NCBI GenBank assembly: GCA_965200785.1
Contig: CBDAVA010000003.1
Location: forward strand, 2,470,205 to 2,534,204
DNA from: Alphaproteobacteria bacterium
GTDB taxonomy: Bacteria > Pseudomonadota > Alphaproteobacteria > Bin95
DNA: 64,000 nucleotides
Direction: 5' to 3'
The first letter of the stretch is position 1. The number at the start of each line of letters is the position of its first letter. This document shows, one piece after another, positions 19,192 to 62,925 of the stretch. The position numbers were made by a program, and so were the translations under genes. The notes below the pieces were generated by a model. It was given only the letters and a program-made list of their open reading frames with translations, did no database searches and was not told the DNA's origin.

Positions 19192-20451
19192 ATGACCGGA
19201 GCGGAGAACGCCGCAGCGCAAACCGGAAGCAGGGCGGCCAGGCGGCCGCTCGAAGGCATCCGGGTCATCGACTTTACCCAGGTGCTCGCCGGCCCGTATT
19301 GCACGCAGCAATTGGCGCTGCTCGGCGCGAATGTGGTCAAGGTAGAGAACCGCGCCGGCGGCGATCAGGGGCGCGGCCTCGGGACCGCGAAGGACCAGCG
19401 CCTTATCGACCACGACATGTCCACGCTGTTTCTCTCCGTCAACACCGGAAAGCAGTCCCTCACGCTGGACCTCAAGCATCCCCGTGCAGGCGGCGTCGTG
19501 CGCCGGCTTGCGGCGTCGGCGGATGTCGTCATCCAGAATTTCAAGGCGGGAACGATGGACCGCATGGGCTTCGGCTACGAGGCGCTGAAGCAGGTCAATC
19601 CGCGCCTCATCTATTGCTCGATTTCGGGATACGGCCAGTCCGGGCCGCGTGCGCCCGCCGCCGCCTATGACCCCGCGATCCAGGCGTCGTCCGGCATGAT
19701 GGCGGTTACCGGCCTGCCGGAGACCGGCCCCCTCAAGACCGGCTACTGGCTGACCGACATGGCGACCGCCATTCAGGCGTGTTTCGCCATTTCATCGGCG
19801 CTATACCACCGCGAGCGCACCGGGGAAGGCGACCATCTCGACCTCTCCATGCTCGACACGGCGGTCGGCATCATGGCGCCGACGCTTGCCTTCTGGCAGG
19901 TGAATGGAGAGGATCCGGCGCCGACCGGCAACAAGTCGCAGACCGGCAACCCGACCTCCGACGCCTTCCCCACCGCCGACGGTTTCCTGATGGTAGCCGC
20001 GCCGACCCAGGGCCAGTTCGTCGCACTGGCGAAGGTGCTCGGTCGGGCCGAGCTCTGCGACGACCCGCGCTTCGCCACCCTCCCGGACCGGATCGCACAT
20101 GCGGGCGCGCTGCGCGGGGAGATCGTCAAGGCGCTGGCCGCAGCCGATGCCGGCGCCTGGGAGGCGCGCCTCGCCGCGGCCGGTGTGCCGGCGTCGCGGG
20201 TTTCGACCGTGCCGCAGGTCTGTGCGGACGACCAGCTCGCCCATCGCGAGGCCTTCCGGCCGATCGCGCGGCAACACGAGATCGGCGGCGGCGAAGGCGT
20301 TTATGTGGACCTGCCGTTCCACGGTGCGAACACCGCGCGCGGCACGGACCGCCCGCCGCCGCTGCTCGGCGAGCATACCGACCCGGTGCTGGCCGACCTC
20401 GGTTTCTCGCCCGGGGAAATCGCCGAGTTGCGCCGCGAGGGCGCCATATAG
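19192..20451 (+). CDS. CaiB/BaiF family (class III) CoA-transferase (second copy)
   Basis: GIRVIDFTQVLAGPYCTQ N-terminus. Divergent from the agmatinase-family gene. Confidence 0.9.
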   Translation: MTGAENAAAQTGSRAARRPLEGIRVIDFTQVLAGPYCTQQLALLGANVVKVENRAGGDQGRGLGTAKDQRLIDHDMSTLFLSVNTGKQSLTLDLKHPRAGGVVRRLAASADVVIQNFKAGTMDRMGFGYEALKQVNPRLIYCSISGYGQSGPRAPAAAYDPAIQASSGMMAVTGLPETGPLKTGYWLTDMATAIQACFAISSALYHRERTGEGDHLDLSMLDTAVGIMAPTLAFWQVNGEDPAPTGNKSQTGNPTSDAFPTADGFLMVAAPTQGQFVALAKVLGRAELCDDPRFATLPDRIAHAGALRGEIVKALAAADAGAWEARLAAAGVPASRVSTVPQVCADDQLAHREAFRPIARQHEIGGGEGVYVDLPFHGANTARGTDRPPPLLGEHTDPVLADLGFSPGEIAELRREGAI

Positions 20452-20458
20452 GCGCGCC

Positions 20459-20983
20459 CTACCCCTCCCGAAGCAAGAGCAGTTCGGCGCAATCGACAGC
20501 GGCGCGCTCGGCGCGGGCGGCCAAAGCCGCCTGGCCGGCGCTGCTGATCGGGTGCTCGATGACTGCGAAGGGATAGCCTTCCGCACCCAGAACCCGGGCC
20601 ATCAGCTCCGCTGCGCTGACGAAGGTCTCCGTCATGATGCCGGCGGAAGGAACGCCGATGCGCTCTCCGGCAACCGCGTCATGCAAACTGCACGACGAGC
20701 AGCTGCCTCAATCGCCAATGCCGGCGACAAGCGCATCCCAGTTTCTGGCCTCTTCCAGCAAACCCGCATCTGCCGGCGCGCTGTAGTTCGACTTGGTGCG
20801 CAATATGACCTCGCCGACGCCGTAGCGTTCCTTCAGCGTCTGCTCGAAAGCCGAGAAGAAGCCCTTGGTGCCTTCCTTGCCGTTCGAGATCACCCCGATG
20901 GTGGCGCCTTCCAGCGCCGCCAGGCGGGCAGCGGGCGCAAAGCCCGCAGCGCCTTCCTCATGCGACGGATCGAGTATTCGCAT
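20459..20983 (-). CDS. UGSC-family selenoprotein (in-frame TGA = Sec at 20708-20710)
   Basis: ORFs 20708..21214 and 20459..20686 are in the same frame. Reading through the TGA gives ...LVAGIGD-U-GSCSSCSLHDAVAGE... i.e. the D-U-G-S-C motif. Starts MRILDPSHEE with GAGGA RBS. A 6-bp-stem hairpin (AGCTGC-tcgtcgt-GCAGTT) lies 9-27 nt after the TGA as a candidate bacterial SECIS. Confidence 0.7.
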
Positions 20984-21009
20984 CCTGTCCTCGCTTCCTC
21001 GATGTCGGA

Positions 21010-22059
21010 CTATGGAATTTCGCAATCGACGCAGGCGCCGATCGCAACGGTCACGGCCCGGCTCTTGTGGCCGAGCCAAGGGGGGATGACCGCGCCGAAA
21101 CCGCCGGCCGGGCCGCCTGCGGCCACCACCAGCAGGTCTTCCGGAGCCGAGAGCGCCGCATATTCCCATTCGCCCCGGTCGCGCACCACCGCGCCCTTGC
21201 CGCACTCGGCCCATTCCGCGCGCCGGATGCGCGCCTTCTCAAAGATATAGGCGCGGATATCGGCCTTGGACCAGCCGGCGGCATTGAAGTGAGCGCGCAA
21301 TTGCGGGGGCACGATCATGGCGTAGTTGCCGGGCCAGATCGAGTAATGGCGCATATTGGCGCGTATTTCGGCCGCATAGGTATCCAGAATTTCTTCCGGA
21401 ACGGTGGTCCACTCGTTCATCAACTGGCGCGGCGCGCCCGCTGCCATGGCCGTCACGCTGGAAGCGCCGACAGGCATACCGCGCTCCTCGGCAAGCGGCA
21501 GCCATTCGGAGCCGGCCTCGTCCTCCGCCAGGCAATAGCTGATCTTGCCGGGATGACCGAGCACCGAGCGGTCGATGGCGCCGGGCCGGACATCCAGCAT
21601 GTTAATGAGACAGAGGCGAAGCGCGCGGCCCACCACCGTCGAGGCGCGGTCGCTGGATGCGAGCGCGTTGAATGTGGCGTCCATGCCGATTTCGGCCGCA
21701 ATCGGCCCGTTGACGACAACCAGCACGGCGCAGCCGCCCGTGCTTGCGGTGGCGCCGTGCAGCAGAAACGGCTCCTGCAGCATGGCGGTGAAGGCGGTGA
21801 CAACGACCGGGAAGTGCATCGGCAGGCACCCGGCCATGACGGCATTGACAGCCAGCTTCTCGGCAGTGACCGCGCGGGCGCGCACCGGCTCCACCCCGAC
21901 CAGATGGGCGGGCGGCAGCCCCGCCCAGTCGAGACACGCCTCGACAGCGTCGGCCGTCGGCGGCACCACGGGCAAACCGTCCGTCCAGCCCCGGCTGTGA
22001 TAGAACTCCTGTGCCGCCATCATGTCGGTCACATCGTAGCTTGTGGAAGCAAGCGCCAT
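21010..22059 (-). CDS. conserved hypothetical protein (349 aa), upstream partner of the UGSC selenoprotein gene
   Basis: Normal amino-acid composition versus the Arg/His-rich antisense ORF 21067..22065. Stop is 27 bp before the UGSC start. Confidence 0.6.
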   Translation of the reverse strand: MALASTSYDVTDMMAAQEFYHSRGWTDGLPVVPPTADAVEACLDWAGLPPAHLVGVEPVRARAVTAEKLAVNAVMAGCLPMHFPVVVTAFTAMLQEPFLLHGATASTGGCAVLVVVNGPIAAEIGMDATFNALASSDRASTVVGRALRLCLINMLDVRPGAIDRSVLGHPGKISYCLAEDEAGSEWLPLAEERGMPVGASSVTAMAAGAPRQLMNEWTTVPEEILDTYAAEIRANMRHYSIWPGNYAMIVPPQLRAHFNAAGWSKADIRAYIFEKARIRRAEWAECGKGAVVRDRGEWEYAALSAPEDLLVVAAGGPAGGFGAVIPPWLGHKSRAVTVAIGACVDCEIP

Positions 22060-22122: not shown

Positions 22123-22498
22123 GGCGGGCCGTGTCTCAGTTCGCAACGAAGGCCCGTGCTGGCGGGTTTTTCGGAACGCGCCTCCCTGCCGCGCCGCTTC
22201 TATCGCCTCCCTAGTCGTCACCCCAGCCGGGGAGCGCATGTCCTCTTGTCACCCCGGCCGGAGCGCAGCGGAGAGCCGGGGTCCATCCTCCGCCGTTTCG
22301 GCCCTGCGGAAGGATCGGAGGCTGGGCCCCGGCTCAAGGCCGGGGCGACAGCAAGGGGGCCGGGGCGACAGTAGAGGTGTCCGGGCGACAACAGGGGGTC
22401 CGGGGCGGCACCGGGGCGTTCGGGGCGGCGGGCCGGGCCTCTCGTGCCCCTGGCTCAATCTGCCAAAGGAACGCGAATGTCAAACGGAGACACGACCT
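22123..22498. repeat. MITE-like mosaic repeat, full copy B (~375 bp)
   Basis: Imperfect terminal inverted repeats CCGTGTCTCAGTTCGCAACG ... CAAACGGAGACACGAC. Modules A (GGCGGGTTTTTCGGAAC), B (GGGGTCCATCCTCCGCCGTTTCGGCCCTGCGGAAGGATCGGAGGCTGGGCCCCGG), C (GGGGCGACAG short tandems) and D. Confidence 0.8.
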
Positions 22499-31974: not shown

Positions 31975-32262
31975 CGGGTCGTGTCTCAGTGTGACATTCG
32001 CGTTTCTCTGGCAGAGTCAGCCAGGGGCTTGAGAGGCCCGGCCCCCCGCTCCGAACGCCCCGGCGCCTCCCCGGACTCCCGGGCACCGCCTCGGACCCCC
32101 TGTTGTCGCCCCGGACCCCCTACTGTCGCCCCGGCGCTCCGCTCTGCTCCGGCCGGGGTGACGAAGGGGAGGCGATACAAGCGGCGCGGTTCGGAGGCGC
32201 GGTCCGAAAAACCCGCCAGCACGGGCCTTCGTTGCAAACTGAGACACGACCCTCTTCCGCCT
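31975..32262. repeat. MITE-like mosaic repeat, copy C (inverted relative to copy B)
   Basis: GTCGTGTCTCAGTGTGACATTCGCG ... GCCTTCGTTGCAAACTGAGACACGAC. Same modules as copy B in reverse orientation. Confidence 0.8.
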
Positions 32263-35255: not shown

Positions 35256-35315
35256 CAGAAGGGGGGCGCCGGGGCGCAGGAGTGAAGACGATTGCAGCCC
35301 GCGGCACGCCAGGAT

Positions 35316-35831
35316 TCAGCGCACCGGCCCGGCATCGACAAGGCGGCGGTCTTCCGGCTTCAGGAAGAATTCGACCAGGTTGTTCCCCGGGCCGCCCCGG
35401 TCCACGACGAGGAAATCGGTCTCGCGGTCGAGTGCGATAACGGGGTGGTGCCACACGCCCCTGGCGTAGCTCACCCCCTGCCGCCCGTTTGTGAGAAATA
35501 CGCGGAGGTCGTCCGGTGCGACCGCCTCTCCCGGCGGTGCGACAACAACCAGGAAGGGCTCAGCCCCGAGCGGCATGAAGGCCTGCGAGCCGAGCGGGTG
35601 CTTCTCCAGCATGGCGATTGTCAGCGGCATGGGCAGCGGTCGGGCGCGGAAGACATTGACCAGCGCATGGCCGCCTTTCGCGGCGACATCGACGCGGGCA
35701 AGGTCATGGAAACGGGTCGCTGCGCCGTTATTAATCTCGAACCGGGCCGCACCTTCGGTTTCGATCACATCGCCGAAAGGCTGAAAGGCCGCTCGGGTTA
35801 GGGGCTCGATCAGGAGGACGGTCCTTGCCAT
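35316..35831 (-). CDS. ureidoglycolate lyase (AllA-family)
   Basis: [24 protein letters not shown]... Cupin-type AllA. Confidence 0.7.
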
Positions 35832-35854
35832 GTGGAGAGATCGGCGCCCCTGCC

Positions 35855-36460
35855 TCAAAGCGCGATTGCGGCGTCGAACTCGCCGCCGGCGGCCTCCAGC
35901 CATTCCCAGAACGAGCGGGCATAGCTGCGCGGGATGTGAAGCTCGAAGGCGTCCGGCCCGCTGCGGTAGAGCAGCGCTTGCGCATTGCCGATGCGGGTGC
36001 GCACCGCCCGCCCCGGCGGAAATGCCTCTGCATCGAGGTCAATGCCGGTTCCTGTGGCCAGCAGGTCGGCGGCGTGGCCGCCCGTGACCGCGATAACCGT
36101 CGAGGCCGCGGACATGTCCACCAGCGCCGCCCCGCTCCCGGCCAGTCCTGCGCCAAGACGTTCCGCCAGCCGGGCGCCGGCGGCCGGCGGCGCGAGCAGG
36201 CGCCATTCGTCCGGGCCGAGGCGGAAGGCAAGCGCGCCGTCTTCGCCCTCGACGGCTGCGCCCGGCTCCCGCGGCAGTCCCGCGCCGAGCGCCGCCTCGA
36301 CACCTGCCGCGAATACCGCGTCGTCAGCCCGGCCGCGCAGGACCAGGCTCACGCGCGCCGGCGCCTCGCCCAGCAGCACGCCGCCGGCGCCGCCGGCGCG
36401 CGAGCCGAGATCCAGGCCCGCAAGCGCGCTGCGCTGCGCCTCTGCCGGATAGTCAACCAC
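35855..36460 (-). CDS. soxG: sarcosine oxidase subunit gamma
   Basis: Last gene of soxBDAG. GTG start 36458-36460 overlapping the soxA stop by 8 nt. SoxG family. Confidence 0.7.
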
Positions 36461-39401
36461 GAAGGCGTGTTCCTTCCGCGTCGTAGAATACCGGCGGCAC
36501 GACCTCCGCCGCCGTGGAAAAGTCGATGACCGGAGAGGCGATATGGACGGTCTGTCCGATACGCGCGCGCCCGTTCTCCACCAGCGCCAGAGCGATCGCG
36601 CGGCCGAGCGTCGGGCTGTAGCAGAAGGAGGTGACATGCCCGAGCGGCGGCGCCGGGCGCATTCCCTCGCTCTCCATCACCTGCCCGCCGGGTGAGATGC
36701 GGGCCTGCGTGTCGATGACCGACAGGCCGACCAATTGCTGCCGCCCGCTCCGGCAGAGCGCCGGAAGGTTGAGCGACCGCTTGCCGATACCCCGCTTGTC
36801 CGCCCCGACCATGCGCCCGAGGCCCAGATCGTCCGGCGTTGTGCGTCCGTCGGCCTCGGCGTGGGTGACATGCCCCTTCTCGATGCGCATGACGCCCATG
36901 GCCTCGGTGCCGTAGGGGACCAGGCCGTGGTCCCGGCCCGCCGTGAGCAACCGCGTCCAGAGCGCAAGCCCGACATCCGCAGGCACAGCGATCTCATAGG
37001 AAAGCTCGCCGGAAAAGCTCATTCGGAAAACGCGCGCCGGCAGACCGGCTACCAGCGCCCCGCGCACCGCCATCATCGGGAACGCGGCGTCCGACAAGTC
37101 CAGCTCCGGCGCAACCCCGGCAAGCAGCGCCCGCGAACCGGGGCCGGCCAGCGCCGCCGAGAACCAGTGCTCGGTAACATCGGTCGCATAGACCTGCAGC
37201 TCTGGCCAGACGGTCTGGAGCAGGTGGTCGATATGCTCCGCCACGGCGGTCTGATGCGCGGTTGTTGTCGTCAGATAAAAGTGGTTTTCGCCGAGGCGCA
37301 TGGCGACGCCGTCATCGAAGACGCGCCCGTCCTCGCGCAGCATCAGCCCGTAGCGTCCGCGCCCGGTCTTCAGGCTGGACATGCGGTTAGCGTAGATGAG
37401 TTCGAGGAACGCGGCGGCGTCCGGCCCCTGCAGGTCGATCTTGCCCAGAGTGCCGACATCCACAATGCCGACGCCGGCGCGGGTTTCGCTCACTTCCGCC
37501 GCGATAACATCGGCCTCTTCCATACCCTCGCGCGGATAATAGCGCGGCCGGCGCCAGAGGCCGGCGGCGGTAAAGTCGGCTCCAGCGGCTTCATGCCAGT
37601 CGTCGGCGGCGGTGCGGCGCAGCGCATCGCGCCCCTCGCCGATCAAGCCGGCGGCCATGGCGGCCATGGATACCGGGGTATAGGGCGGGCGGAACGTCGT
37701 CGTGCCGGTCTCGGCAACCGGGCGGTCCAGCGCCCCGGACAGCAGCACAAGCCCCGCCATGCCGGAGGTCTTGCCCTGGTCCGTGCCCATGCCGAGCGTC
37801 GTATAGCGCTTCACATGCTCGACGGATCTGTATCCCTCGCGCGCGGCGAGTTCCACATCGGCCGCCGTCACATCATATTGCAGATCGACAAACCGTTTGC
37901 CGGCGCCCGGTTGCCAGAAGAGCGGCGCCTCCCCGGCCTCCCGGTCGGGCGAGCGCGGCGGCGGTCCGGCGGCGCGCTCATATCCGGAGGCGGCGGCGGC
38001 CTCAATGCCTCCGGACCAGCCCTCCGCCAGACAGCCGTCCAGGTCGAAACGCCCGGCCGCCGCGCCAACACTGCGGTTCGCACCGCCGGCGCGGTCGGGC
38101 AGGACCAGGCCGCGCTCTTCGTCATAGCGCATACTGCCGCGCGCCTGGGCATGGAGATGGACAGCCGGACTCCAGCCTCCCGACACGGCGACGAGATCAC
38201 AGGAGATAGGCTCGCCGCCGTCTCCGGCCGCGCTGTCCGCCCGGCGCAGTCGGACGCCGCGCACCCGGCGTTGGCCGACGACCCGCTCGACAGTCTGACC
38301 CGCGCGGCAGGGCAGGTCCTGCGCTTCCCGGCCGGGGCGGGTGTCTGCAACACCGGCTATGGCGGCGCCGGCGCCCCGCAGCAGCCGCGCCACGGCATAG
38401 ATGCTGTCATTATTGCCGGCCACGACGGCGCGCCGCCCGGCGAGGACGCCATAGGCATGGGCATAGCCGCCCGCCGCCGAAGCAGACATGACTCCCGGCC
38501 GGTCGTTCCCGGCAAACAACAGCGGGCGCTCATGCGCGCCTGCGGCGATGACGACTTCCCGCGCCCGCACAAACCACAGCCGCGTCTCCGGCGCGCCGGG
38601 CCCGGCATCCTCGCCGGCCCGTTCCGCGACCAGAAGCAGGTTATGGTCGTAATAGCCGGTGACGGTGGCGCGCGGCAGCAGGCGGACGCGGGGCATCGCC
38701 TCCAGTTCGCCGATTGCGGCATCGATCCAGGCGAGTCCGCCGCCGTCGTCGATCTCGCCCGGCGCGCGCACCAGATTGCCGCCGAAGCGCATATTCTCAT
38801 CGGCAAGCACCACGCGGGCGCCGGCGCGCCCGGCCGCCAGCGCCGCCGCGACACCCGCCGGCCCGCCGCCGGCCACCAGCACATCCGCATGGATGCGCCG
38901 CTTGGCATACACGGCATCGTCGGGTGCGGCGGGCGCCGGCCCGAACCCCGCCATGCGGCGAAGCACCGGCTCGTAAAGCATATGCCACCAGCGCGCCGGC
39001 CACATGAAGGTCTTGTAGTAGAAGCCCGCCGGCAGGATGTCTCCGGCAAGCCCGGCAGCGGCGGCGATGTCCCAGGCGACCGAGGGCCAGGCATTCTGCC
39101 CGAACGCCCTGAGACCCTCGCTGAGCGGTATCTCGGTGGCTTTCAGGTTCGGGCGGGCTTCCTCCCGGACGCCTGTCGTCACCATCGCGTTGGGCTCTTC
39201 CGAGCCGAAGCCCCAAACGCCGCGCGGGCGGTGATATTTGAAACTCCGCGCGGTGATGCGAACGCCGGCCGCCAACAAGCCGGAAGCCAGGCTGTCGCCC
39301 CGGAACCCTTCATGGCGATGGCCGTCGAACTCGAAGCGCAGCGGCTGCGCGCGGTCAATCAAATGCCCGCCCTCAGCGGTGCGGAAGGGTTGGCGTTTCA
39401 T
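36453..39401 (-). CDS. soxA: sarcosine oxidase subunit alpha
   Basis: 982 aa. N-terminal FAD/NAD Rossmann region. C-terminal GcvT-like folate-binding domain. MKRQPFRTAEGGHLIDRAQPLRFEFDG. Confidence 0.95.
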   Translation of the reverse strand: MKRQPFRTAEGGHLIDRAQPLRFEFDGHRHEGFRGDSLASGLLAAGVRITARSFKYHRPRGVWGFGSEEPNAMVTTGVREEARPNLKATEIPLSEGLRAFGQNAWPSVAWDIAAAAGLAGDILPAGFYYKTFMWPARWWHMLYEPVLRRMAGFGPAPAAPDDAVYAKRRIHADVLVAGGGPAGVAAALAAGRAGARVVLADENMRFGGNLVRAPGEIDDGGGLAWIDAAIGELEAMPRVRLLPRATVTGYYDHNLLLVAERAGEDAGPGAPETRLWFVRAREVVIAAGAHERPLLFAGNDRPGVMSASAAGGYAHAYGVLAGRRAVVAGNNDSIYAVARLLRGAGAAIAGVADTRPGREAQDLPCRAGQTVERVVGQRRVRGVRLRRADSAAGDGGEPISCDLVAVSGGWSPAVHLHAQARGSMRYDEERGLVLPDRAGGANRSVGAAAGRFDLDGCLAEGWSGGIEAAAASGYERAAGPPPRSPDREAGEAPLFWQPGAGKRFVDLQYDVTAADVELAAREGYRSVEHVKRYTTLGMGTDQGKTSGMAGLVLLSGALDRPVAETGTTTFRPPYTPVSMAAMAAGLIGEGRDALRRTAADDWHEAAGADFTAAGLWRRPRYYPREGMEEADVIAAEVSETRAGVGIVDVGTLGKIDLQGPDAAAFLELIYANRMSSLKTGRGRYGLMLREDGRVFDDGVAMRLGENHFYLTTTTAHQTAVAEHIDHLLQTVWPELQVYATDVTEHWFSAALAGPGSRALLAGVAPELDLSDAAFPMMAVRGALVAGLPARVFRMSFSGELSYEIAVPADVGLALWTRLLTAGRDHGLVPYGTEAMGVMRIEKGHVTHAEADGRTTPDDLGLGRMVGADKRGIGKRSLNLPALCRSGRQQLVGLSVIDTQARISPGGQVMESEGMRPAPPLGHVTSFCYSPTLGRAIALALVENGRARIGQTVHIASPVIDFSTAAEVVPPVFYDAEGTRLRG

Positions 39402-39658
39402 GGCCGGCTCAGCCGCACATTGCGGATCTCATGGCTGCTGGTATCGCGCTCGACTGTCAGCCAGCGCCGGCAACCGTCGCGATGAAACCAGAGCTCACGA
39501 TGCGGCCCCTTCGGGTTGTCGCGGAAATACAGATAGTCGGTCCAGACGGCATCATCCGTGTCTGCAGGATCGGCCGGCCGCATGACTGCCGCATCGCCGC
39601 CGTAAACGAATTCGGTTTCGTCTCGAGAACCGCAGAACGGGCACGGGATCAGAAGCAT
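39398..39658 (-). CDS. soxD: sarcosine oxidase subunit delta
   Basis: MLLIPCPFCGSRDETEFVYGGDA... SoxD zinc-ribbon. GAGGGAGG RBS. Confidence 0.85.
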   Translation of the reverse strand: MLLIPCPFCGSRDETEFVYGGDAAVMRPADPADTDDAVWTDYLYFRDNPKGPHRELWFHRDGCRRWLTVERDTSSHEIRNVRLSRP

Positions 39659-39671
39659 GCGCCGGCCTCCC

Positions 39672-40928
39672 TCAATGCGCCGCCGGCACCGGCCCGGCGC
39701 CGCGCTCGTCGAGCATGGCCCCGGTGCGGAAGCGCTCGAGCGAGAACGGTGCGTTGAGCGAGTGGGGCGCATCATTGGCAAGCGTCCATGCAAGGCACCA
39801 GCCAGAGGCGGGGGTCGCCTTGAAGCCGCCGTAACACCATCCCCCCGTCATGGCGAGGCCCTCGACGGGCAGTCTGCCGATGATCGGGCTTCCGTCCATG
39901 CTCATATCCATCACGCCTGCCCAGTGGCGGAGCTGGCGCAGGCGCGAAATGCGGGGGAAATATTCGCAGGCCGCCGCCAGGATGTCCTCCAGACGCGCCG
40001 GGCTGCCGCGCTGCGACCAGGAGTTGTAGCCGTCCAGATCGCCGCCGATCAGCACTTCGCCCTTGTCCGTCTGGCTGACATAGACATGCGAGGCGGCGAC
40101 TGAGACGACCGTGTCGATAAAGGGTTTGACCGGCTCCGATACCGTCGCCGAGAGCAGATGCGTCTCGATAGGCAGGCGAATGCCGGCCATCTCCGCCAGG
40201 CGCGAGGAATGCCCGGCGACGGCAAGGCCGATCCGTCCGGCTCCGATGCGGCCCCGGCTGGTCTGCACTCCCGCAACCCTGCCGGCCCGGATGTCGATGC
40301 CGGTCACCTCGCAATCCTGGATGATATCGACGCCCAGCGCGTCGGCGGCGCGCGCATAGCCCCAGGCGACGGCATCGTGGCGAGCCACGCCGCCGCGCGG
40401 CTGAATGACGCCGCCCACGATGGGATGGCGGATTCCGGGCGACAGGTTGAGCGCCGGGACGATCCGGGCAAGGTCGGCCCGGCCCAGCAATTCGGCGTCG
40501 ATGCCGGCGAACCGCATCCCGTTATGCCGGCGGACCCAATAGTCGCGCTGGGCGTCGGTGTGAAAGACATTGATGACGCCGCGCGGGGAGAACATCACAT
40601 TGTAGTTCAGGTCGCCGCTGAGCCCTTCCCAGAGTTTCAGCGAGTGCTCGTAGAAGCGCTGGTTCTCCGGCAGCAGATAGTTTGACCGCACGATGGTGGT
40701 GTTGCGCCCGGTATTGCCGCCGCCGATCCAGCCGCGTTCCAGCACGGCGACATTCGAGACGCCGTGATTGCGGGCGAGGTAGTAGGCGGCGGCGAGGCCG
40801 TGGCCGCCGCCGCCGACGATGACGACATCGTAGGAGGATTTCGGCTCCGGCGCCCGCCAGGCCGGCTGCCAGTTCCGATGCCCGGCAAACGCGCCCCGCA
40901 CCAGCGAGAAGATCGAATAACGCTGCAT
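39672..40928 (-). CDS. soxB: sarcosine oxidase subunit beta
   Basis: YDVVIVGGGGHGLAAAY FAD motif. Covalent-flavin His context. 418 aa. Confidence 0.95.
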   Translation of the reverse strand: MQRYSIFSLVRGAFAGHRNWQPAWRAPEPKSSYDVVIVGGGGHGLAAAYYLARNHGVSNVAVLERGWIGGGNTGRNTTIVRSNYLLPENQRFYEHSLKLWEGLSGDLNYNVMFSPRGVINVFHTDAQRDYWVRRHNGMRFAGIDAELLGRADLARIVPALNLSPGIRHPIVGGVIQPRGGVARHDAVAWGYARAADALGVDIIQDCEVTGIDIRAGRVAGVQTSRGRIGAGRIGLAVAGHSSRLAEMAGIRLPIETHLLSATVSEPVKPFIDTVVSVAASHVYVSQTDKGEVLIGGDLDGYNSWSQRGSPARLEDILAAACEYFPRISRLRQLRHWAGVMDMSMDGSPIIGRLPVEGLAMTGGWCYGGFKATPASGWCLAWTLANDAPHSLNAPFSLERFRTGAMLDERGAGPVPAAH

Positions 40929-40977: not shown

Positions 40978-41303
40978 CGGGTCGCGCCTCAGTTTGACAT
41001 TCGCGTTTCTCTGGCAGGTTCGGCCAGGGGCTTGAGAGGCCCTGCCCGCCGCCCCGAACGCCCCGGCGGCGCCCCGAACCCCCACTTGTCGCGCCGGACG
41101 CCCCTACTGTCGCCCCGGCCCTGAGCCGGGGCCCAGCCTCCGATCCTTCCGCAGGGCCGAATCGGCGGAGGATGGACCCCGGCTCTCCGCTGCGCTCCGG
41201 CCGGGGTGACGACAAGGGAGGCGATAGAAGCGGCGCGGCACGGAGGCGCCTTCCGAAAAACCCGCCGGCACGGGCCTTCATTGCAAACTGAGACACGACC
41301 GCC
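40978..41303. repeat. MITE-like mosaic repeat, copy D (same orientation as copy C)
   Basis: GTCGCGCCTCAGTTTGACATTCGCG ... CCTTCATTGCAAACTGAGACACGAC. Confidence 0.8.
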
Positions 41304-42203: not shown

Positions 42204-42329
42204 ATATCAGCCGGAGCGGGCTCCGACTGCACCGCTGGAAGTCAGACCTGCCGGCAATGTTCTTGATTGCGGGCGGGGGCGCCGGCACTATGGCCGCTGG
42301 GTGGCCGGGTGCCGCCAGGGAGAGCCGGG

Positions 42330-42602
42330 ATGACCCCGGAGATGATCGCCATACTGGCCGTTGGCGTCGCGCTGGCCGGGCTCATCCTGCAAGGACAGCG
42401 CGGGCTTGGTGCCCGTATGGACCGGTTCGATGCCCGTATGGACCGGATGGACGCCCGTATGGATCGGTTGGAGGCCCGCATGGAGCGGTTCGAAGCGAAA
42501 TTGCGGGAAATCCGCGACCGTCTGAGCCGGCTTGAGGGCAAGATGGACTTCCTGGAAGGCTATATCGTCCGCCGCAACGAGTTCGGCGCGCCGGCTGAAT
42601 AG
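42330..42602 (+). CDS. small N-terminal-TM coiled-coil protein, copy 1 (90 aa; 4 ARMDRxx heptads)
   Basis: MTPEMIAILAVGVALAGLILQGQRGLG + ARMDRFD ARMDRMD ARMDRLE ARMERFE + AKLREIRDRLSRLEGKMDFLEGYIVRRNEFGAPAE. GGGAG RBS. Confidence 0.75.
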   Translation: MTPEMIAILAVGVALAGLILQGQRGLGARMDRFDARMDRMDARMDRLEARMERFEAKLREIRDRLSRLEGKMDFLEGYIVRRNEFGAPAE

Positions 42603-42707
42603 CAGACCCCGCCGGAAGCGCGGACCTGCCGGCGAGGCCCTTGATTGCAGGCGGAGGAGTCAGCACTATGGCCGCCAGGTGGCCGGATGCTGCCAGGGAG
42701 AGTCGTG

Positions 42708-42917
42708 ATGACCCCGGAGATGATCGCCATACTGGCCGTTGGCGTCGCGCTGGCCGGGCTCATCCTGCAAGGACAGCGCGGGCTTGGCGCCCGTATGGAG
42801 CGGTTCGAAATGGAATTGCGGGAAATCCGCGACCGTCTGAGCCGGCTTGAGGGCAAGATGGACTTCCTGGAAGGCTATATCGTCCGCCGCAACGAGTTCG
42901 GCGCGCCAGCCGAATAG
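42708..42917 (+). CDS. small N-terminal-TM coiled-coil protein, copy 2 (69 aa; 1 heptad)
   Basis: Identical N- and C-terminal portions. Only ARMERFE before the LREIR segment. Confidence 0.75.
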   Translation: MTPEMIAILAVGVALAGLILQGQRGLGARMERFEMELREIRDRLSRLEGKMDFLEGYIVRRNEFGAPAE

Positions 42918-43022
42918 CAGACCCCGCCGGGAGCGCGGACCTGCCGGCGAGGCGCTTGATTGCAGGCGGGGGAGCCAGCACTATGGCCGCTAGGTGGCCG
43001 GGTGCCGCCAGGGAGGGCCGGG

Positions 43023-43253
43023 ATGACCCCAGAGATGATCGCCATACTGGCCGTTGGCGTCACGCTGGCCGGGCTGATCCTGCAAGGACAGCGCGGGCTT
43101 GGAGCCCGTATCGACCGGCTGGAAGCCCGCATGGAGCGGTTCGAAGCGAAATTGCGGGAAATTCGCGACCGTCTGAGCCGGCTTGAGGGCAAGATGGACT
43201 TCCTGGAAGGCTATATCGTCCGCCGCAACGAGTTCGGCGCGCCGGCCGAATAG
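43023..43253 (+). CDS. small N-terminal-TM coiled-coil protein, copy 3 (76 aa; 2 heptads)
   Basis: ARIDRLE ARMERFE then the conserved tail. Confidence 0.75.
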   Translation: MTPEMIAILAVGVTLAGLILQGQRGLGARIDRLEARMERFEAKLREIRDRLSRLEGKMDFLEGYIVRRNEFGAPAE

Positions 43254-43358
43254 CAGACCCCGCCGGAAGCGCGGACCTGCCGGCGAGGCCCTTGATTGCG
43301 GGCGGGGGAGTCAGCACTATGACCGCCAGGCGGCCGGGTGCCGCCAGGGAGGGCCGTG

Positions 43359-43610
43359 ATGACCCCGGAGATGATCGCCATACTGGCCGTTGGCGTCGCG
43401 CTGGCCGGGCTCATCCTGCAAGGACAGCGCGGGCTTGGCGCCCGTATCGACCGGCTGGAGGCCCGTATGGACCGGCTGGACGCCCGCATGGACCGGTTCG
43501 AGGCGGAATTGCGGGAAATCCGCGACCGTCTGAGCCGGCTTGAGGGCAAGATGGACTTCCTGGAAGGTTATATCGTCCGCCGCAACGAGTTCGGCGCGCC
43601 GGCCGAATAG
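43359..43610 (+). CDS. small N-terminal-TM coiled-coil protein, copy 4 (83 aa; 3 heptads)
   Basis: ARIDRLE ARMDRLD ARMDRFE then the conserved tail. Confidence 0.75.
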   Translation: MTPEMIAILAVGVALAGLILQGQRGLGARIDRLEARMDRLDARMDRFEAELREIRDRLSRLEGKMDFLEGYIVRRNEFGAPAE

Positions 43611-52415: not shown

Positions 52416-53618
52416 CTTCAGGATTCTTCTGCGAAAGGGATGTTTTTGGGTTATGGCGGTGTATTGGGGGGGCTTTTGGGGGTTGGGCGGGGGCGATTGA
52501 GGGGCGCGCGCCGGTGTTGTTGGGCGATGGCGTGTCGGCGTCGACCGTTTGGCAGCGGGATAGGGGTGTCAGGCGCCCGCAATCAGGCAGGCCCGGCGCA
52601 GATTGTAGGCGGCGACGGTGACATAGAGGCGGGCGGTGTTGCGCTCCAGAGACCGGCTCTTGGCCCGCCTCAGACCGTAGAGACGCTTCAAGGCCGAGAA
52701 GACGGCTTCCACCGGCGCCCGGCGTCTGGCAATCAGATCGTTGCGGCGCTTCCGCCAGGCCGGCAGCGCCTCTATGTGCTTGTGCCGCCGGTGCATGATG
52801 CGGTCCTTGATGCCGGCGGCCTTGAACCTGGCCCGTCTGGCCTTGTGCTCATACGCACGGTCGCCATAGACCGCCGCCTCGTCGCCGCAGATCAACTGCT
52901 CCGCGACCGTGCTCTCCCAGATCTTGGCTGACGTCAGCACCACACGCCGGATCAGACCCGAACCCGCATCCACACCGATATGCACCTTGTAACCGAAGAA
53001 CGCCTTGCCCTTCTTCTTCGTCCAGTCCGCACCCGGCTCGCGCGCGCTCCTGGTCCCTGCTCCCGCCTTGTAAGACGGCGCCCGGGAAGCCGCAGATACC
53101 AGCGTGGCGTCCATTAGCGTGCCCTTGCGCAGGATCAGACCGGCAGCATCAAGCTGGCGGGTGATCTCCTCAAACGCCGCCTTCAACACAGGCCCCGCAT
53201 CCGACCGAAACCGGCACAACGTCGTCTCGTCCGGCGTGCCCCCGTCCAGCGCAAAACCGCAAAAACGCCGGAACGAAAGGCGGTCAAGAAGCGCCTCCTC
53301 AAGGCCAGGGTCAGAAAGATCATAAAGCGCCTGAAGATACAGCGCCTTCAGCATCGACAGCGGCGCATAGGGAGGACGACCCCGACGACCCTCGCGCACA
53401 CCACACACAAGGCGCTCCAGAGGCACCCAGTCAATCAATGCCTCCAGACGTTCCAGCTTCCGGTTCGAACCAAGACCCGAAGACACAAAGGCGTCCGTAA
53501 ACCCCAACTGACCCGGCGCGCGCATCGACACAACCTCCCCTGCCTCACCGCAATGAATCACAGATAACCAAATCCGCAAACCAACATTTCGCAGAGGAAT
53601 CCTGCAGGGAGAGGGAGG
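52414..53618 (-). mobile_element. IS5-family insertion sequence (~1.2 kb)
   Basis: Terminal inverted repeats CAGGATTCTTCTGCGAAA (52416-) and the reverse complement CAGGATTCCTCTGCGAAATG (ending 53618). Single transposase ORF. Confidence 0.8.
52569..53525 (-). CDS. IS5-family DDE transposase
   Basis: MRAPGQLGFTDAFV... Typical IS5 N-terminus. DDE region (YGDRAY, E...LK.L). Confidence 0.85.
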   Translation of the reverse strand: MRAPGQLGFTDAFVSSGLGSNRKLERLEALIDWVPLERLVCGVREGRRGRPPYAPLSMLKALYLQALYDLSDPGLEEALLDRLSFRRFCGFALDGGTPDETTLCRFRSDAGPVLKAAFEEITRQLDAAGLILRKGTLMDATLVSAASRAPSYKAGAGTRSAREPGADWTKKKGKAFFGYKVHIGVDAGSGLIRRVVLTSAKIWESTVAEQLICGDEAAVYGDRAYEHKARRARFKAAGIKDRIMHRRHKHIEALPAWRKRRNDLIARRRAPVEAVFSALKRLYGLRRAKSRSLERNTARLYVTVAAYNLRRACLIAGA

Positions 53619-53639: not shown

Positions 53640-53800
53640 CCCCCGACCGGCGCGCCCCCTCCTGCCACCCCGGATGGAGCGAAGCGGAAATCCGGGGTCC
53701 ATCCTCCGCCCTTTCGGCCCCGCGGAAAGATCGGAGGCTGGGTCCCGGATCAAGGCCGGGGCGACAGTAAGGGGGGCCGGGGCGACAGTAGGGGAGGCTG
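53640..53800. repeat. MITE-like mosaic repeat, truncated copy E (modules B+C)
   Basis: CACCCCGGATGGAGCGAAGCGGAAATCCGGGGTCCATCCTCCGCCCTTTCGGCCCCGCGGAAAGATCGGAGGCTGGGTCCCGG...GGGGCGACAGTA... Confidence 0.75.
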
Positions 53801-57706: not shown

Positions 57707-58213
57707 GTGGCGGCAATGGCGCTCGAATGGTCCCATATGGTGCTCTATGTCGAGGATGTGGAGCGGATGCTGGCCTTCTACACCGATGTGCTCGGCTTCG
57801 AGGTGACAGACCGCGGGCCGCTCGGCCGGGACGACAGGGAAATCATCTTCCTGAGCCAAAGTCCGCGGGAGCACCACCAGGTCGCCTTCATCGACGGCAG
57901 AAGCGCGGCCGGCCCCTCCAACAGCGTCAATCATGCCGCGTTCCGCATTGACGACCTGACAGCGCTTCGCCGCCTAGCGGCGGCGCTCGACGCCGAAGGC
58001 GCCGCCTACAATCCGCGCACGCATGGCAACACCTGGTCCATCTATTTCCAGGACCCGGAGCAGAACGGTATCGAGATCTTCTGCGACACGCCCTGGAAAG
58101 TCGCGCAGCCGCAGGCGGTGACCTGGGATCCGGCGCTCAGCGACGCCGAGCTCGCGCGCTGGACGGAAGAGCGCTTCCGGCACGAACCGGGCTTCGAGCC
58201 CGCAGACGCATAG
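57707..58213 (+). CDS. VOC-family (glyoxalase/bleomycin-resistance/dioxygenase) protein
   Basis: HMVLYVEDVERMLAFYTDVLGFEV. Paired beta-alpha-beta-beta-beta modules. Confidence 0.8.
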   Translation: MAAMALEWSHMVLYVEDVERMLAFYTDVLGFEVTDRGPLGRDDREIIFLSQSPREHHQVAFIDGRSAAGPSNSVNHAAFRIDDLTALRRLAAALDAEGAAYNPRTHGNTWSIYFQDPEQNGIEIFCDTPWKVAQPQAVTWDPALSDAELARWTEERFRHEPGFEPADA

Positions 58214-62504: not shown

Positions 62505-62925
62505 GAGTCCAAATGTTAAACTGAGACATTACCAAGTGCTGGCGGGTTTTTCGGAACACGCCTCCGTGCCGCAGCGCTTGGATCGCCTCCCTTGTCGTCA
62601 CCCCGGCCGGAGCAGAGCGCAGAGCCGGGGTCCATCCTCCGCCGCTTCGGCCTTGCGGAAGAATCGGAGGCTGGGCCCCGGCTCAGGGGCGGGGCGACAG
62701 TAGGGGGCCGGCGCGGCAGTAGGAGGTCCGCGGCGGCAACAGGGGGTCCGGGGCGGCGCCCGGGGGATCCGGGGCGGCGCCGGGGCGTTCGGAACGCGCC
62801 TCCGTGCCGCGCCGCTTACACCGCCTCCCTTTTGTCACCCCGGCCGGAGCGCAGCGCAGAGCCGGGGTCCATCCTCCGCCGTTTCGGCCCTGCGGAAGGA
62901 TCGGAGGCTGGGCCCCGATGGTGTG
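62505..62925. repeat. MITE-like mosaic repeat, copy F with internal duplication of modules A-B, interrupted at its right side by an IS110-family element
   Basis: GTTAAACTGAGACATTACCAAGTGCTGGCGGGTTTTTCGGAAC..., module B twice, ending ...GGAGGCTGGGCCCCG|ATGGTGTGG where similarity to other copies stops. Confidence 0.75.

Follow-up and report, generated by a model that had tools for sequence, protein, structure and literature searches.

Does a TGA in the middle of a reading frame end a gene, or does it code for selenocysteine (Sec), and what might the product of such a gene do? The question is raised by a locus in the genome of an Alphaproteobacteria bacterium (contig CBDAVA010000003.1, positions 2,470,205 to 2,534,204). 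This stretch of 64 kb is called here the window, and positions given below are those of the window. The locus is made by two genes, both on the minus strand: one encodes a protein of the UGSC family, and the other, located upstream, a protein of 349 amino acids (aa) called here the partner. The output of an ORF finder features two open reading frames (ORFs) in the same frame. The minus-strand ORF 20708..21214 (168 aa) terminates at the TGA, and the second ORF starts at 20686, 7 codons past it; the frame is open beyond the TGA up to a TAG at 20461..20459. Sequence and translation reveal a single gene of 174 residues (175 codons including the stop), which starts at the ATG 20983..20981 (MRILDPSHEE) and has the TGA mid-gene, at codon 92. 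A GAGGA ribosome-binding site is found 4 nt ahead of the ATG (Table 1), a second GAGGAA at 21000..20995. The initial annotation of this DNA, made from the letters alone, had already reported the interruption of the frame and its resumption after 7 codons, as well as the start, the GAGGA site and the 174-residue product; all were found as described.

The read-through product includes the stretch ALVAGIGD-U-GSCSSCSLHDAVAGERIGVPSAGIMTETF, the local string around codon 92 being GIGD-U-GSCSSCSLHD. When U is replaced by C, the protein matches the Pfam family UGSC (PF24696) with 157 bits, the cut-off being 25, along positions 2-170 of the 172 of the profile and residues 3-169 of the protein. As the match spans the TGA, the latter lies inside one domain, and the two halves of the read-through product are one unit. 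Assignment to the UGSC family, proposed early on from the GIGD-U-GSCSSC signature, is consequently supported from end to end. The known family (PF24696, NF041046) and the window protein share the full-length match, the GD-U-GSC motif, the alternation of Sec and Cys, a size of ~175 aa and the occurrence in aquatic Alphaproteobacteria. They differ in that the window protein, again with C for U, scores 113.4 bits against the NCBIfam model NF041046 ('UGSC family (seleno)protein'), below its equivalog cut-off of 125; the gene is a UGSC member at the family level, under the NCBI naming threshold. Residues G90, D91, G93, S94 and C95 are invariant in UGSC homologues, and the position 92 column holds C or UGA. 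The initial annotation had taken other residues at this site as an argument against its proposal; the homologues show Cys or UGA. In the subfamily of the window the motif extends to U-x-x-C-x-x-C (U92, C95, C98).

Two sets of loci have been analyzed. Genome loci were retrieved with the partner protein as bait, taking one genome per species: matches came from at least 596 species, and analysis was restricted to the 80 best loci, which belong to metagenome-assembled genomes (MAGs) of Alpha-, Beta- and Gammaproteobacteria and of Acidimicrobiales. Metagenome loci, also 80, were retrieved with UGSC as bait. The nearest relatives (91% identity) reside in MAGs of uncultured Alphaproteobacteria and Rhodospirillaceae. 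The UGSC gene is next after the partner gene in 80/80 genome loci, and in all of them codon 92 is TGA, followed by GSCSSCSLHD. Six additional paralogous UGSC copies likewise have TGA. A Cys codon (TGC or TGT) occupies the position 92 column in 54 of the 80 metagenome loci, which host more distant relatives, and full-length Cys forms are found among the proteins named 'UGSC family (seleno)proteins' by NCBI in Paraburkholderia, Advenella, Amycolatopsis and Janthinobacterium.

The 24 codons from the UGA to the next Met (Met117) preserve their amino acids across the 80 genome loci and vary at synonymous sites: four codons are used for Gly106, six for Arg108, four for Pro112. Differences from the window at the first, second and third codon positions amount to 0.26/0.25/0.55 beyond the hairpin described below, and to 0.28/0.21/0.49 before the UGA; the pattern is alike, indicating that selection at the protein level acts in the same way on the two halves. 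These data bear on the idea that the TGA is a true stop, which would leave either a pseudogene or two small genes, with products of 91 aa (N-terminal) and 58–75 aa (C-terminal). Gene callers cut the UGSC gene in two at the UGA in every public assembly examined, as this idea would have it, and the ATG of Met117 is invariant. Yet TGA is kept in all 80 species with no other disruption, the codons from the TGA to Met117 keep their residues and are free at synonymous sites, the Pfam domain crosses the TGA, full-length Cys forms exist, a hairpin with a GU loop tracks the UGA, and sel genes are linked to the locus in two genomes. A true stop is very improbable, and the splitting of the gene is a routine annotation error.

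Decoding of the UGA as an amino acid other than Sec, by an alternative code (Trp or Gly) or by near-cognate read-through, can hardly be entertained. Database entries P0003 and P0004 do show W or G at this site, but these are probably products of pipelines using code 4 or code 25. TGA is the normal stop of about half of the window genes, which argues against an alternative genetic code. Among homologues whose codons were examined UGA alternates with Cys only. In addition, the hairpin is conserved, and selA, selB and tRNA-Sec are linked to the locus in two genomes. Other genes with an in-frame TGA were sought across the window, and only neighbouring genes in a shared frame turned up.

Some variants of the Sec subfamily deserve mention. 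In metagenome loci L091 (5001-5525) and L092 (187-711) the TGA is replaced by CGA (Arg) and TGT (Cys), respectively, and the hairpin is retained; recent conversion, decay of the copy or a sequencing error could each account for them. Transposase genes flank L091. A second UGSC paralogue, GLGD-U-GSCSTCSLHDGVSFEQL, with TGA and the same hairpin, is found ~2.6 kb downstream of the first pair in L032, L035, L036, L039 and L052. Extra partner copies seen in ORF clustering suggest that a second partner gene is also present in these five loci.

A very probable selenocysteine insertion sequence (SECIS) follows the UGA. In the description of this element columns are numbered from the U of UGA. The core, GUCGUGCA-GUU-UGCAUGAC, spans columns 15-33 and begins 11 nt after the UGA; the loop GUU (20688..20686, columns 23-25) presents G23 and U24. 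The minimum free energy (MFE) fold of the sequence directly after the UGA is GGCAGCUGC-UC-GUCGUGCA-GUU-UGCAUGAC-GCGGUUGCC; over 63 nt it reaches −33.8 kcal/mol (z = −3.8), and 0/200 shuffles are as stable. Only the upper hairpin is conserved across orthologues. The lower stem is lineage-specific and was discarded as a conserved element.

Synonymous sites are frozen inside the hairpin. Cys98 is TGC, Ser99 AGT and Leu100 YTG in 80/80 genome loci, and Ser97 is TCG in 77/80; Ser, Leu and Cys columns outside the hairpin feature several codons each. All six core pairs are formed in 110/111 UGA forms versus 9/59 Cys forms, and G-U is found at columns 23-24 in 111/111 UGA forms versus one Cys form out of 59, a TGT variant which still bears the hairpin. 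The peptide CSLHD follows UGSCSS only in Sec forms, and is replaced by G-x-V-L-D in Cys forms, suggesting that the RNA element dictates part of the protein sequence. A second Sec subfamily, identified in soil metagenomes and marked by GD-U-GSCSAASLADG, carries CGCGGCCA-GUU-UGGCCGAY at the identical offset. Compensatory changes between the two subfamilies involve pairs 19-29 (U-A to G-C) and 20-28 (G-C to C-G). In the joint alignment 98.1% of the cells are paired, versus 89.7% in shuffles, none of 500 shuffles being equal. Inside the window subfamily alone the core does not vary, and covariation there consequently fails to reach significance.

The initial annotation had assigned the SECIS role to a different hairpin, AGCTGC/GCAGTT, said to start 9 nt after the UGA. 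This hairpin exists (columns 7-12 with 20-25) and is 96.7% paired within the window subfamily, sharing GCAGU with the core described above, but only 3 nt separate it from the UGA, and it is not the conserved SECIS: it breaks in the second Sec subfamily, is mutually exclusive with the stronger hairpin, and places the loop too near the UGA. The core can be compared to the element of E. coli fdhF, the sequence of which was fetched: UGA, 11 nt, GGUUGCA-GGUC-UGCACC. The two have in common the 11-nt spacer, G23 and U24 at identical positions, and a UGCA/UGCA closing stem. In contrast to fdhF, the UGSC element has no bulged U17, column 17 being an invariant C paired with G31; its loop measures 3 nt (GUY) in place of GGUC, and its upper stem is a run of 8 bp, which is interrupted in fdhF. 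Orthologues conserving TGA, homologues with Cys and the hairpin all support the early reading of the UGA as Sec; on these comparisons the gene is very probably a selenoprotein gene equipped with a SECIS.

Genes for the Sec machinery were identified next to the operon in some relatives. All fetched loci were scanned with ARAGORN, which detected tRNA-Sec in L061, from a Burkholderiales MAG, and in L063, from a betaproteobacterial one. ORFs beside these tRNAs encode SelB and SelA, the latter with 534 and 507 bits; their distance to the partner-UGSC operon is 1-3 kb (sel genes at 1551-4883 in L061, 1769-4685 in L063). The SelB proteins feature GTP_EFTU and Beta-barrel_SelB domains, and SelB-wing_3 in L061 only. 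At least some carriers of orthologues hence keep the Sec machinery linked to the operon, and machinery and UGSC selenoprotein may travel together in these two.

The partner gene ends 26 nt ahead of the ATG of the UGSC gene. No terminator-like site was found between the two, and the genes are probably co-transcribed. The partner adjoins UGSC in 80/80 genome loci and in 69/80 metagenome loci; in the latter it mostly lies just downstream of UGSC, and the misses are mostly short contigs. In cultured hosts of Cys forms the two genes are adjacent in either order. The partner is an obligate companion of UGSC, in keeping with the link to the upstream 349-aa gene proposed at the outset. Pfam and NCBIfam contain no match to the partner, and profile searches of the sequences in the Protein Data Bank (PDB) yielded nothing for either partner or UGSC. 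Relatives are numerous: >7,778 have 74–94% identity, and clustering at 50% identity gives 4,629 or more clusters. Near-universal residues are WTDGLPVVPPT, NAVMAGC (Cys78), GRAxRL and SYC-x-AE-x-E (Cys176). The AlphaFold2 (AF2) model of the partner has a predicted local distance difference test (pLDDT) score of 93.7, which is low at the C-terminal tail. Foldseek comparison to the PDB gave template modelling (TM) scores of 0.29 at best, and class I fumarate hydratase and the Toblerone-fold cyclic amide hydrolases, at TM ≤ 0.29, were not accepted as homologues.

Table 1. Position of the features of the UGSC-partner locus in the window
Feature	Position	Strand	Evidence
Probable UGSC-family selenoprotein gene	20459..20983	-	Translation; PF24696 full length, 157 bits; found in 80/80 orthologous loci
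In-frame UGA, probable Sec codon, motif GD-U-GSC	20708..20710	-	TGA in 80/80 orthologues and 6 paralogues; codons 103-116 synonymously variable, residues kept
Probable SECIS core hairpin GUCGUGCA-GUU-UGCAUGAC	20678..20696	-	Fold z; frozen synonymous sites; association with UGA; compensatory pairs; fdhF register
Extended lower stem GGCAGCUGC / GCGGUUGCC around the core	20669..20707	-	MFE fold of window and closest relatives; many unpaired cells in orthologues
GAGGA ribosome-binding site	20988..20992	-	Direct sequence reading
Partner gene, 349 aa, no Pfam/NCBIfam family	21010..22059	-	26-nt gap; no terminator-like site; homologues; adjacency; fusions
C-terminal Cys343-x-Asp-Cys346 tail of the partner, candidate redox shuttle	21022..21033	-	Invariant in alignment; low pLDDT at tail

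The fold of UGSC was modelled with AF2 on the homologue P0001, a 174-aa Cys form 56% identical to the window protein, by using 59 sequences (pLDDT 91.6). The model features a beta-alpha unit repeated five times in a flavodoxin/Rossmann-like three-layer domain, and the U/C residue immediately follows strand 3 and lies at the N-terminus of helix 3. Comparison to the PDB gave, as top matches, generic structures (lumazine synthase, TIR, the flavin mononucleotide (FMN)-dependent Cys decarboxylase HFCD, PurE; TM 0.40–0.49). A U-x-x-C motif at the N-terminus of a helix is the classic setting of a selenenylsulfide/selenol-thiol couple. The predicted fold is flavodoxin-like, in contrast to the thioredoxin-like fold suggested for UGSC in the literature (PMC2398784), which the P0001 model does not support.

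Partner and UGSC are also found as parts of larger proteins. UGSC-partner fusions of the Sec type are represented by P0201 and P0206, in which the gene call begins past the UGA. In P0258 and P0209 a Redoxin/AhpC-TSA domain (CPTC) takes the place of UGSC at the N-terminus of the partner, and in P0169 the partner is fused to a small ACxxC protein. The latter also occurs as a separate protein of 78–91 aa, marked by AC[ET][DE]CL[VA]P and assigned to no Pfam family; cassettes of Cys forms and of the Sec subfamily from soil contain its gene as a third member (L090 6569-6826, L173 9568-9804, L174 8552-8827, L175 8531-8779, and in 23 metagenome loci). Small protein and partner tail are complementary in distribution. 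The small protein is absent from the window subfamily, where 74/78 partners end in Cx[DE]C, and partners accompanied by a separate ACxxC protein have no Cx[DE]C tail. The redox module of the partner system is exchangeable among UGSC, a Redoxin domain and a small ACxxC protein. Six proteins of ~710–740 aa (P0159, P0164, P0171, P0182, P0193, P0203) are made by two tandem domains of the partner family and have no UGSC domain. A hydrophobic ORF of ~85 aa, unrelated to the ACxxC protein, recurs in Reyranella-type loci (L060, L074, L076, L078, L080, L082, L084, L092), and directly follows UGSC in L092.

Thiol/selenol redox chemistry is suggested by the proteins in which the partner is joined to a peroxiredoxin-like domain or a small CxxC protein. 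A working scheme can be drawn. In the two-gene minus-strand operon, comparative evidence shows that UGA codon 92 is very probably read as Sec via the standard bacterial SelB route: the hairpin 11 nt past the UGA, with G23/U24 in the loop, would recruit SelB with Sec-tRNA(Sec) to the ribosome stalled at the UGA. UGSC and partner would form one thiol/selenol-dependent oxidoreductase, in which the partner would hold the substrate site, with Cys78 and Cys176, and U92-x-x-C95 would cycle between selenol/thiol and selenenylsulfide, reducing the partner. Shuttling between the two proteins may fall to the flexible Cys343-x-D-Cys346 tail of the partner, and in other subfamilies would be carried out by the ~80-aa ACxxC protein. 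The position of U-x-x-C at the N-terminus of a helix, the swap of UGSC with Redoxin, and the ever-present second CxxC, be it in the tail or in the small protein, together suggest a relay from UGSC to the CxxC shuttle and to Cys78/Cys176, which is advanced here tentatively. A thioredoxin-type relay with a mobile C-terminal CxxC tail is featured by R1 of class Ia ribonucleotide reductase. In R1 as in the partner, the enzyme has a Cys pair at a flexible C-terminus and goes with a small dedicated redox protein, a likeness to be taken as analogy only, not homology. It is a fair bet, if somewhat below even, that partner, UGSC and the CxxC tail or ~80-aa ACxxC protein make up a previously undescribed selenol/thiol enzyme system, in which Sec or Cys takes part directly in catalysis or turnover.

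In the main rival scheme, judged less likely than not, UGSC would be a catalytic subunit rather than an electron carrier: Sec92 would attack the substrate in a composite site formed with the partner, and C95 (and C98) would resolve the selenium adduct, as in selenoprotein B of glycine and proline reductases. The strict 1:1 adjacency of the genes and the fusions are in line with this scheme, and the extreme conservation of the partner, with 74–94% identity across classes, fits a tight complex. UGSC-like domains devoid of Cys persist in fusions, as a structural subunit would. The U-x-x-C-x-x-C motif of the window subfamily is presumably of the GrdB type. GrdB/PrdB selenoproteins carry Sec in a UxxC motif (PMC2398784, Table 2); they act only together with a dedicated subunit, which, as in the UGSC operon, is encoded by the adjacent gene. 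However, no sequence match of UGSC to GrdB/PrdB selenoprotein B (PF07355) was obtained at E ≤ 1, and the GRDB and Gly_reductase Pfam families exhibit no similarity at the same threshold. By Pfam, the UGSC partner is not a proprotein of the GrdE/PrdA type, and UGSC hosts have genomes of aerobic heterotrophs. The ability of Redoxin/AhpC-TSA to replace UGSC at the N-terminus of the partner fits better with an interchangeable reductant.

The explanation that combines family identity, recoding of the UGA and the redox relay is given as a whole a probability of about 0.8, most of the weight resting on identity and recoding. Several observations weigh against it. The window hosts neither SelA, SelB or SelD, according to Pfam scans of ~50 window ORFs, nor tRNA-Sec; ARAGORN detected no tRNA at all in the 64 kb, and the sole translational GTPase found among the ORFs scanned is BipA. 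Searches of Rfam, at the gathering threshold for the whole window and at E ≤ 10 for 20400..21100, retrieved nothing. Covariation in the hairpin comes down to one comparison of two subfamilies, hence to few evolutionary events, the hairpin being nearly invariant within the window subfamily. The UGSC fold was derived from P0001, not from the window protein. A gene for thioredoxin reductase (TrxB) adjoins the operon in no more than two Burkholderiales genomes and 2/80 metagenome loci. In three full-length fusions of a UGSC-like domain to the partner (P0246, P0248, P0284) the motif has neither Cys nor Sec, and the domain cannot be a redox carrier there; these proteins favour a structural or catalytic-subunit role over that of a pure electron donor.

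Lists of selenoprotein families have included the UGSC-containing protein since 2007-2008 (PMC1976440, PMC2398784, PMC9312934, PMC13188914), and the window gene itself belongs to this already known family. UGSC was noted in Hyphomonas neptunium (ABI76733.1), and is a major family in ocean metagenomes (PMC2398784, PMC1976440), ranking among the most abundant ones in the Global Ocean Sampling (GOS) and, as a selenoprotein, in aquatic metagenomes. Its function is given as unknown (PMC1976440, PMC13188914), as the initial annotation also had it. The 2008 GOS paper described UGSC fused to a conserved 'Unknown_1' domain (PMC2398784), which may correspond to the 349-aa partner. An obligate partner lacking a family model, the three-module architecture, a non-thioredoxin fold, the exact SECIS and the linkage to sel genes are not mentioned in the papers searched, and could be known elsewhere. 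For a specialist the UGSC gene is ordinary. The main interest lies in the uncharacterised partner system, since the UGSC selenoprotein is essentially never found without a partner that is extremely conserved, and yet is in no domain database. If the proposed scheme is right, the enzyme system would be very widespread, on account of the number of partner clusters and of species genomes given above, and its catalytic subunit would be covered by neither Pfam nor NCBIfam models and would lack any relative of solved structure. Cys-form cassettes reside in culturable Advenella, Paraburkholderia and Amycolatopsis, which makes the function accessible to genetics.

Genes flanking the operon change with the subfamily. 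CoA-transferase III genes are found near the operon in 29/80 genome loci, which are of the marine type, and zinc-dependent alcohol dehydrogenase (Zn-ADH) genes in 25/80 metagenome loci from soil; acyl-CoA dehydrogenase, CoA ligase and TrxB genes are located nearby in some Burkholderiales. The links to CoA-transferase III, Zn-ADH and TrxB are each subfamily-specific. HyuB, encoded upstream, was dismissed as a component of the system, being present in only 7/80 loci. The neighbours hint at the catabolism of organic acids or coenzyme A (CoA) esters. Many genes for the catabolism of methylated amines and organic acids are also found in the window at 35286-40928 and at 8-20 kb. They include sarcosine oxidase soxBDAG, ureidoglycolate lyase, a lone hydantoinase B, an arginase-family hydrolase and TauD, along with two CoA-transferase III genes, acyl-CoA dehydrogenase and enoyl-CoA hydratases.

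A dispersed intergenic repeat, GGCCGGGGCGACA, marks the window, with 11 matches versus 0.71 expected. Copies are located at 22217-22422, 32104-32136, 41108-41120, 53754-53787, 57824-57836 and 62687-62845. Just upstream of the partner gene the repeat is organized in 20-nt tandem units plus inverted copies, and looks like a repetitive extragenic palindromic (REP) sequence or a miniature inverted-repeat transposable element (MITE). Logan assemblies of the source organism all break ~113 nt upstream of the partner gene, and the repeat is probably the reason. Four tandem paralogous small ORFs (90–111 aa) are found on the plus strand at 42267-43610; three exhibit sub-threshold matches to the coiled-coil family DUF7310, and the ORF at 42645-42917 has no match. 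At 52569-53579, on the minus strand, a DDE transposase of the insertion sequence (IS) type (DDE_Tnp_1 plus DUF772) adjoins a porin gene, and the GC content of this stretch is lower (0.62–0.65).

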